This document shows, piece by piece, positions 51,278 to 51,568 of a stretch of 64,000 bases of DNA; within the stretch, counting starts at the first letter, position 1; the number at the start of each line of letters is the position of its first letter. The position numbers were made by a program, and so were the translations under genes. The notes under the pieces were generated by a model. The model was not told where the DNA came from. It saw nothing but the letters and a program-made list of their open reading frames with translations, and did no database searches. Source of the stretch: Escherichia coli (GTDB lineage: Bacteria > Pseudomonadota > Gammaproteobacteria > Enterobacterales > Enterobacteriaceae); the NCBI RefSeq assembly GCF_003334405.1, contig NZ_QOWM01000006.1, one strand, 5' to 3'.

Positions 51278-51568
51278 TTCCCGTGATGGATAAATAAGGG
51301 TAAGATTCCGCGTAAGTATCGCGGGGGCGTAAGTCTGGTTATAAGGCGTTATTGTTGCAGGCAGTTTGGTCACGGCCAGCGCGCAGCAACCGGAGCGTAC
51401 AAAAGTACGTGAGGATGGCGAGCACTGCCCGGGGCCAAAATGGCAAATAAAATAGCCTAATAATCCAGACGATTACCCGTAATATGTTTAATCAGGGCTA
51501 TACTTAGCACACTTCCACTGTGTGTGACTGTCTGGTCTGACTGAGACAAGTTTTCAAGGATTCGTAAC

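Follow-up and report, generated by a model that had tools for sequence, protein, structure and literature searches.

The spacer between pyrH and frr occupies positions 51278-51568 of the window, by which we mean the whole 64,000-nucleotide stretch of E. coli DNA analysed here, and the question it raises is what so long a non-coding interval contains. The initial annotation had put the gap at 290 bp, and we measured 291 bp. It had also seen no hairpin followed by a U tract and no ORF above about 30 codons. A terminator scan of 51278-51568 likewise found no hairpin-plus-T-run terminator, and the ORF statement held, the longest frames confined to the spacer encoding 32 aa on the plus strand and 36 aa on the minus strand. 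The claim that neighbouring genes are separated by less than 150 bp stood for tsf-pyrH (146 bp) and frr-dxr (91 bp) but not for rpsB-tsf (257 bp) or dxr-ispU (185 bp). The length is nonetheless unusual when the same spacer is compared between genomes: 35% of E. coli genomes have a spacer of 149 bp, and three further enterobacterial genera one of 146-170 bp. The flanking genes are as follows.

50552-51277, plus strand: pyrH (UMP kinase) coding sequence, with its TAA stop codon at 51275-51277; from the ORF list and the RefSeq annotation of the identical K-12 sequence
51569-52126, plus strand: frr (ribosome recycling factor) coding sequence, with a GTG start; from the ORF list and the RefSeq annotation

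The spacer and its flanks were 100% identical to E. coli K-12 MG1655, and coordinates in NC_000913.3 are obtained by adding 141303 to those of the window. Known RNA elements were seen elsewhere in this gene cluster. The 257-bp rpsB-tsf spacer gave a strong Rfam match to CssrA (RF02798, 136 bits) at 49382-49491 on the plus strand, t44/tff was matched upstream of rpsB (48457-48543, 83.5 bits), and the dxr-ispU spacer holds the small regulatory RNA IspZ of the RefSeq K-12 annotation (194784-194844, corresponding to 53481-53541 of the window, plus strand).

We compared the spacer among complete E. coli genomes. Of 5,425 genomes with a match, 3,513 carried the long spacer and 1,912 a form shorter by 142 bp, seen as a two-piece match spanning 349 rather than 491 bases. 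Strains with the short form include O157:H7, CFT073-like strains, ATCC 25922 and CE10. Alignment of the K-12-type, O157:H7, ATCC 25922 and HS-02 alleles reduced this to one change: where the short allele has ATC, the long one has 145 nt (51328-51472). The short allele (GGGTAAGATTCCGCGTAAGTATCGCGGGGGATCTTACCC) folds to a near-perfect hairpin directly 3' of pyrH, in which the GGGTAAGATTCCGCGTAAGTATCGCGGGGG arm pairs with ATCTTACCC to give a 12-bp-plus-3-bp hairpin. The aligned alleles show that the insertion sits in the descending arm of this post-pyrH hairpin and splits it.

51298-51327, plus strand: left arm and inner stem-loop of the ancestral post-pyrH hairpin (GGGTAAGATTCCGCGTAAGTATCGCGGGGG)
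51328-51472, plus strand: insert of the long allele, comprising the mobile repeat and junction bases, in place of ATC of the short allele
51473-51478, plus strand: TTACCC, what is left of the right arm of the ancestral hairpin; its TTA is the probable insertion target

The corresponding spacers of Salmonella (146 bp), Franconibacter (170 bp) and Phytobacter (151 bp) were free of the repeat. Since these three genera have a short spacer lacking the inserted sequence, a spacer of about 150 bp is ancestral and the 291-bp form is derived. The short allele of E. coli HS-02 lacks GGGG within the hairpin (CGC----GATCTTACCC), so the post-pyrH hairpin is itself variable between strains. An inverted repeat, ATCACGG / CCGTGAT at 51266-51287, brackets the pyrH stop codon and overlaps the putative -35 element of the upstream frr promoter; this sequence is conserved in Salmonella, Franconibacter and Phytobacter.

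The inserted sequence is a dispersed repeat. A sensitive search with the insert found 23,579 places in 5,426 genomes, with a median of 5 and a maximum of 8 per genome, and with 6 in K-12 MG1655 and in W3110. Further copies lie in the spacers between the pheM leader and pheS, qseE and qseG, and ucpA and cysP. Pairwise identity among four E. coli copies was 76-84%, the pyrH-frr copy being 76-81% identical to those at pheS, qseE and ucpA-cysP. Copies occur in unrelated spacers and in both orientations. At this site the element is missing from 35% of E. coli genomes and from other genera. RefSeq K-12 has no annotation at the repeat site in the pyrH-frr spacer.

51333-51470, plus strand: the repeat element including both inverted ends (GTCTGGTTATAAGGC ... 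GCCTAATAATCCAGAC), an imperfect palindrome of a family of about 140-150 bp
51388-51416, plus strand: apical core AACCGGAGCGTAC-AAAA-GTACGTGAGGAT, comprising a hairpin of 6 bp, a purine internal loop (GGA/GA) and a helix of CC/GG

In RNA folding predictions the repeat formed one long imperfect hairpin on either strand, with energies of -56.4 kcal/mol (plus) and -52.4 kcal/mol (minus) and a z-score of about -5 on both. A covariance model of the family matched the pyrH-frr copy at 51342-51461 with 93.5 bits. This copy has GGATGG where nearly all relatives have GGATT, creating a mismatch in a conserved helix, which points to decay rather than selection on the pyrH-frr copy. Small ORFs within the element (32, 29, 36 and 35 aa) were dropped as genes because the ATG of the MASTARGQNGK frame is missing in other copies, which have GATTTCGAG for GATGGCGAG. 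The pheM-pheS copy (1494-1631 of the extracted locus) lies in the sense of transcription, after the pheST attenuator region and ahead of the pheS start, and from this orientation the pheST mRNA leader should carry the repeat too.

The initial annotation had presumed that the spacer holds the frr promoter, without finding a convincing pair of hexamers by eye. Our promoter consensus scan likewise called no sigma-70 hexamer pair in the pyrH-frr spacer. Transcription starts, which had been suggested as a check, are available from SMRT-Cappable-seq of MG1655 (PMC6131387), where frr serves as an example of complex operon structure. The supplementary tables of that study place frr starts at K-12 192616 and 192813, that is at 51313 and 51510 of the window, so that the presumption is borne out by two experimentally supported starts. 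From the start at 192616, 475 reads begin and 284 end at the frr terminator; reads from the tsf and pyrH promoters also continue into frr (PMC6131387). We placed the hexamers listed below from these published start sites and not from a consensus call, and compared them in an alignment of four genera (E. coli, Salmonella, Franconibacter and Phytobacter).

51278-51283, plus strand: putative -35 element of P1, TTCCCG, lying 17 nt before TAAGAT and placed from the start site; conserved in Salmonella, Franconibacter and Phytobacter
51301-51306, plus strand: putative -10 element of P1, TAAGAT, ending 7 nt upstream of the published start; in the left arm of the ancestral hairpin
51313, plus strand: major frr start P1 (K-12 192616, SMRT-Cappable-seq), giving a 256-nt leader with the whole repeat
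51499-51504, plus strand: putative -10 element of P2, TATACT, ending 6 nt upstream of the published start; CTATACT is invariant in the four genera
51510, plus strand: second frr start P2 (K-12 192813, SMRT-Cappable-seq operon table), giving a 59-nt leader without the repeat
51556-51560, plus strand: Shine-Dalgarno sequence AAGGA, 8 nt before the frr GTG

GGTAAGATTC at the P1 -10 element and the ribosome-binding region AGTTTTCAAGGATTCGTAACGTG were also invariant in the four genera, and the P1 start falls in the loop of the ancestral hairpin. Because the repeat lies between P1 and P2, transcripts from P1 and read-through pyrH-frr transcripts carry it and those from P2 do not. The spacer thus has two starts and a structured leader, and not a single frr promoter with an unstructured one. 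Whether the spacer or the P1 leader was folded, the prediction showed the repeat as a rod of its own. The Shine-Dalgarno AAGGA was unpaired or weakly paired in the predicted folds of both alleles, and no more paired in the long allele than in the short one.

We consider it very probable that the spacer is an ancestral spacer of about 149 bp with two frr promoters, into which a mobile hairpin repeat of about 140 bp has been added as a tolerated passenger. The ancestral part would comprise the post-pyrH hairpin, P1, P2 and the frr ribosome-binding site. A non-coding miniature inverted-repeat element would have inserted at TTA in the descending hairpin arm, a site that lies after the P1 start and immediately ahead of P2. 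The repeat is predicted to fold by itself into a rod, with the ribosome-binding site left accessible. Most likely it is tolerated as a passenger whose influence on the stability of frr mRNA or on promoter P2 is modest at most. Such effects might arise through a changed stability or RNase III sensitivity of the leader, or through a changed context upstream of the P2 -35 region. The passenger reading is based on the absence of the repeat from 35% of strains and from other genera, together with the mutated helix position in the pyrH-frr copy; in a third of E. coli the repeat is dispensable. An apparent anomaly in the best-studied bacterial genome is thereby explained by a strain-variable mobile repeat in the 5' leader of an essential translation gene. 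As a consequence of the allele difference, frr P1 leaders are 256 nt in K-12 and about 114 nt in, for example, O157:H7 or CFT073, which matters when promoter or leader results are carried from strain to strain.

The same structure could be read as a cis-regulatory leader of frr itself, i.e. an attenuator, riboswitch or protein-binding operator tuning the synthesis of ribosome recycling factor. A structured segment does lie inside the major frr 5' leader, and its predicted stability is very high (z about -5). However, members of this sequence family are found in unrelated spacers and in either orientation, the segment is missing from 35% of E. coli and from three genera that keep both promoters, there was no Rfam match at threshold, and the pyrH-frr copy carries the GGATGG helix mismatch; we regard such a regulator as highly improbable. 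The chance that the element encodes an independent small RNA appears equally slight. That idea came from a weak likeness to Xanthomonas sX9 on the opposite strand: the Rfam model sX9 matches 51360-51410 on the minus strand, it reaches threshold on a Polaromonas copy, and in Xanthomonas sX9 is seen as a 75-nt Northern band. Against it, the match scores 22 bits where the gathering score is 44, neither strand of the element gave a promoter-like or terminator-like site in consensus scans, no start or end inside it appears in the tables of full-length K-12 transcripts that were searched, and sX9 itself is based on 3 reads and has no known function.

A third reading, in which the hairpin is a terminator of pyrH or a REP-like 3' stabiliser of pyrH mRNA, draws on the presence of a long stable hairpin about 55 nt past the pyrH stop and on the frequency with which other family members abut gene 3' ends. 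We consider it unlikely, since the hairpin is followed by GTAATATGTTTAATC and not by a U tract, published reads pass from the tsf and pyrH promoters into frr, and the insertion breaks the compact hairpin that the short allele has right after pyrH. What was anticipated as a leader structure or small RNA holds as far as a long, strongly structured P1 leader is concerned, but not as a regulator specific to frr or an independent small RNA gene. The preferred explanation remains a mobile repeat carried between two ancestral promoters, and we turn to the evidence for its mobility.

The pyrH-frr copy ends in terminal inverted repeats, GTCTGGTTATAAGGC and GCCTAATAATCCAGAC, and the consensus of the inverted ends of enteric copies is GAGCCTATCCCAGTAGGCG. 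Identical 3-bp flanks, always TTA or TAA, bordered 12 of 15 enteric copies, and identical TTA/TAA flanks were found for 6 of 7 copies from Syntrophus; the element including its flanks measures 144-152 bp. At pyrH-frr the empty site reads GGGGGATC-TTA-CCCG and the right junction of the filled site reads ...CCAGACGA-TTA-CCCG, which fits insertion at TTA. The left flank of this copy is TAA and its right flank TTA; the left junction (GGGGGCG-TAA-GTCTGG) is irregular. Being unlike a clean TTA duplication of the empty site, it suggests an old or remodelled insertion, or arrival by recombination.

Orthologous sites were polymorphic for presence and absence, both at pyrH-frr (3,513 filled, 1,912 empty) and at ucpA-cysP. 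The latter site has three alleles, one filled, one empty (GGGAATAAGACG) and one holding a remnant, an 11-bp perfect palindrome GAACCGGGTTC between flanking (duplicated) AA dinucleotides, which looks like the product of excision or deletion. [quoted passage not shown] We found no autonomous, transposase-carrying partner with the same ends in 1.2 Mb of collected loci, where pairs of end sequences were only 105-310 bp apart and orphan half-cores were nested or truncated copies. In a Syntrophus MAG (6443-6770 of the extracted locus) one copy has inserted into another within its apical loop region, a nesting that would fit recent activity in this genome.

We then compared the repeat with described families. 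The pyrH-frr insert probably belongs to the E. coli "RSA" repeat family. According to Bachellier and colleagues and to Blattner et al. in 1997, E. coli K-12 reportedly has six RSA repeats of 152 bp. The likeness lies in dispersed enterobacterial intergenic imperfect palindromes of about 150 bp and in the copy number, with six places found in K-12. The title of Bachellier and Hofnung 1996 equates the "dispersed enterobacterial intergenic elements" BEE95 with RSA. Locally, the pyrH-frr insert is ordinary and in K-12 it has almost certainly been catalogued already; the remaining interest is the conserved apical module of the repeat superfamily described below.

The repeat resembles miniature inverted-repeat elements such as ERIC/IRU, Correia and RUP in being small, non-coding and intergenic, with inverted ends and, in relatives, short target duplications, and also in its strain insertion polymorphism and its co-transcription with neighbouring genes. 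In ordinary miniature elements the ends are conserved and the core varies, whereas here the ends vary between phyla, as does the duplication length, and the apical 30-45 nt are kept. The repeat family goes unmentioned in the reviews of bacterial miniature transposons that we examined, one of which describes element cores as lacking similarity between genera. With REP/BIME sequences it shares the character of intergenic E. coli palindromes co-transcribed with flanking genes, but it is four times the length of REP and its family has target duplications. Local alignment scores against REP consensus sequences (10-11) were within those of shuffled controls, and with the ERIC core 16 of 44 positions agreed, slightly more than in shuffles and much too few for membership. 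Chunjie was ruled out as a relative by its 9-bp duplications.

Rfam gave no match at threshold in the pyrH-frr spacer; with permissive thresholds, the window and 24 related loci returned only sub-threshold or borderline matches to sX9. For this family (RF02228) the score of 22 bits on the minus strand of the E. coli copy at 51360-51410 was below the gathering score of 44, related copies scored 25-47 bits, and the gathering score was reached on a betaproteobacterial copy from Polaromonas. Read as its reverse complement, the sX9 consensus corresponds to the family core plus the left arm. It differs from our repeat in covering half of the element on the opposite strand and in having been described as a single-gene small RNA and not as a repeat. 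In Xanthomonas it is a weakly expressed 75-nt RNA with 3 reads and no known function, and it is listed with the "small RNAs" that are annotated most often in bacterial genomes.

To see how far the apical core extends, one genome per species was scanned for a pattern of 20 specified bases (AACCGGAGCGTA-N4-7-GTACGTGA). The pattern was found at no fewer than 120 loci in many phyla. Among the matches listed, Chlorobi (Chlorobium, Chlorobaculum and Chlorobiales MAGs) had at least 5-10 loci per genome and one Syntrophus MAG had at least 13. Other hosts among these matches were a Nitrospirae MAG, Candidatus Scalindua, Desulfospira, Desulfobacterales, Geobacteraceae and a Spirochaetaceae MAG, as well as Alphaproteobacteria, Betaproteobacteria and many Gammaproteobacteria. 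The core was multi-copy in at least six phyla (Chlorobi, Nitrospirae, Planctomycetota, Desulfobacterota, Spirochaetes and Proteobacteria).

The flanking arms are wholly different between lineages, yet they always pair. In an alignment of 36 sequences with a hand-checked structure, 86% of cells paired, compared with 18-41% when partners were slid, and changes on both sides were seen in 162 cells against 53 in shuffles. The invariance of the 20 core bases in these loci is by construction, because the scan demanded the exact pattern. A covariance model recovered nine further copies without it, one of which, from Yersinia, fitted the model less cleanly. The GGA/GA purine internal loop was kept in 7 of these 9 copies, and two Chlorobi copies have one A-to-G change. 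Compensatory changes in the core were found in Chlorobi copies, where a C-G pair of the apical helix becomes U-A as in sX9, and in Nitrospirae copies, where AA/UU of the next helix becomes CC/GG or GC/GC. Flanking duplications are 4 bp in Chlorobi (6 of 12 copies) and 3 bp (TTA/TAA) in enteric and Syntrophus copies, suggesting that the same apical module is carried on different ends.

We consider it possible, with the balance of probability against it, that the E. coli repeat is the enterobacterial branch of a cross-phylum superfamily whose apical module is kept by selection regardless of ends and duplication length. Its elements might tentatively be described as hairpins of 110-210 nt, with a module in which a hairpin of 6 bp is combined with two purine internal loops (GGA/GA) and a CC/GG helix that carries a bulged A. 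A nearly invariant core with compensatory changes in at least six phyla is unusual for miniature transposons. If the superfamily reading is true, the module would have a conserved molecular role, for example as a binding site for a universal protein or as an active RNA or single-stranded-DNA motif. If the core is functional, it would be a widespread structured nucleic-acid module that RNA family libraries contain only partly and on the opposite strand.

Mismatches in the outer stem were G-U in 99 cases and A-C in 123, giving no sign of RNA-level selection on one strand. Relative to flanking ORFs, 40 copies were antisense and 19 sense, which is suggestive of an antisense placement bias, the gene calls being crude and the copies not independent. 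When the two halves of the core are joined (AGTACGTGAGGA + CCGGAGCG), 18 of 20 positions match the sarcin-ricin loop of 23S rRNA (rrlH 2654-2673). This resemblance was rejected: it was noticed post hoc, neither half by itself scored better than shuffled controls, and the core is predicted to fold differently. The purine loops were also considered as kink-turn or sarcin-ricin motifs, readings that were dropped because the bulge length and strand topology do not fit.

Exact matches to the core pattern were also found in IMG/VR viral contigs (31 matches, in which host flanks may be included). Going by their identifiers, we assume that most of them are prophage calls from isolate genomes. Finally, some enteric copies (Yersinia, Photorhabdus, Citrobacter, Pectobacterium, Pluralibacter and a soil MAG) carry an extra two-hairpin segment of about 55-60 nt right after GAGGATT, representing an optional domain or, alternatively, a small repeat nested in the copy.
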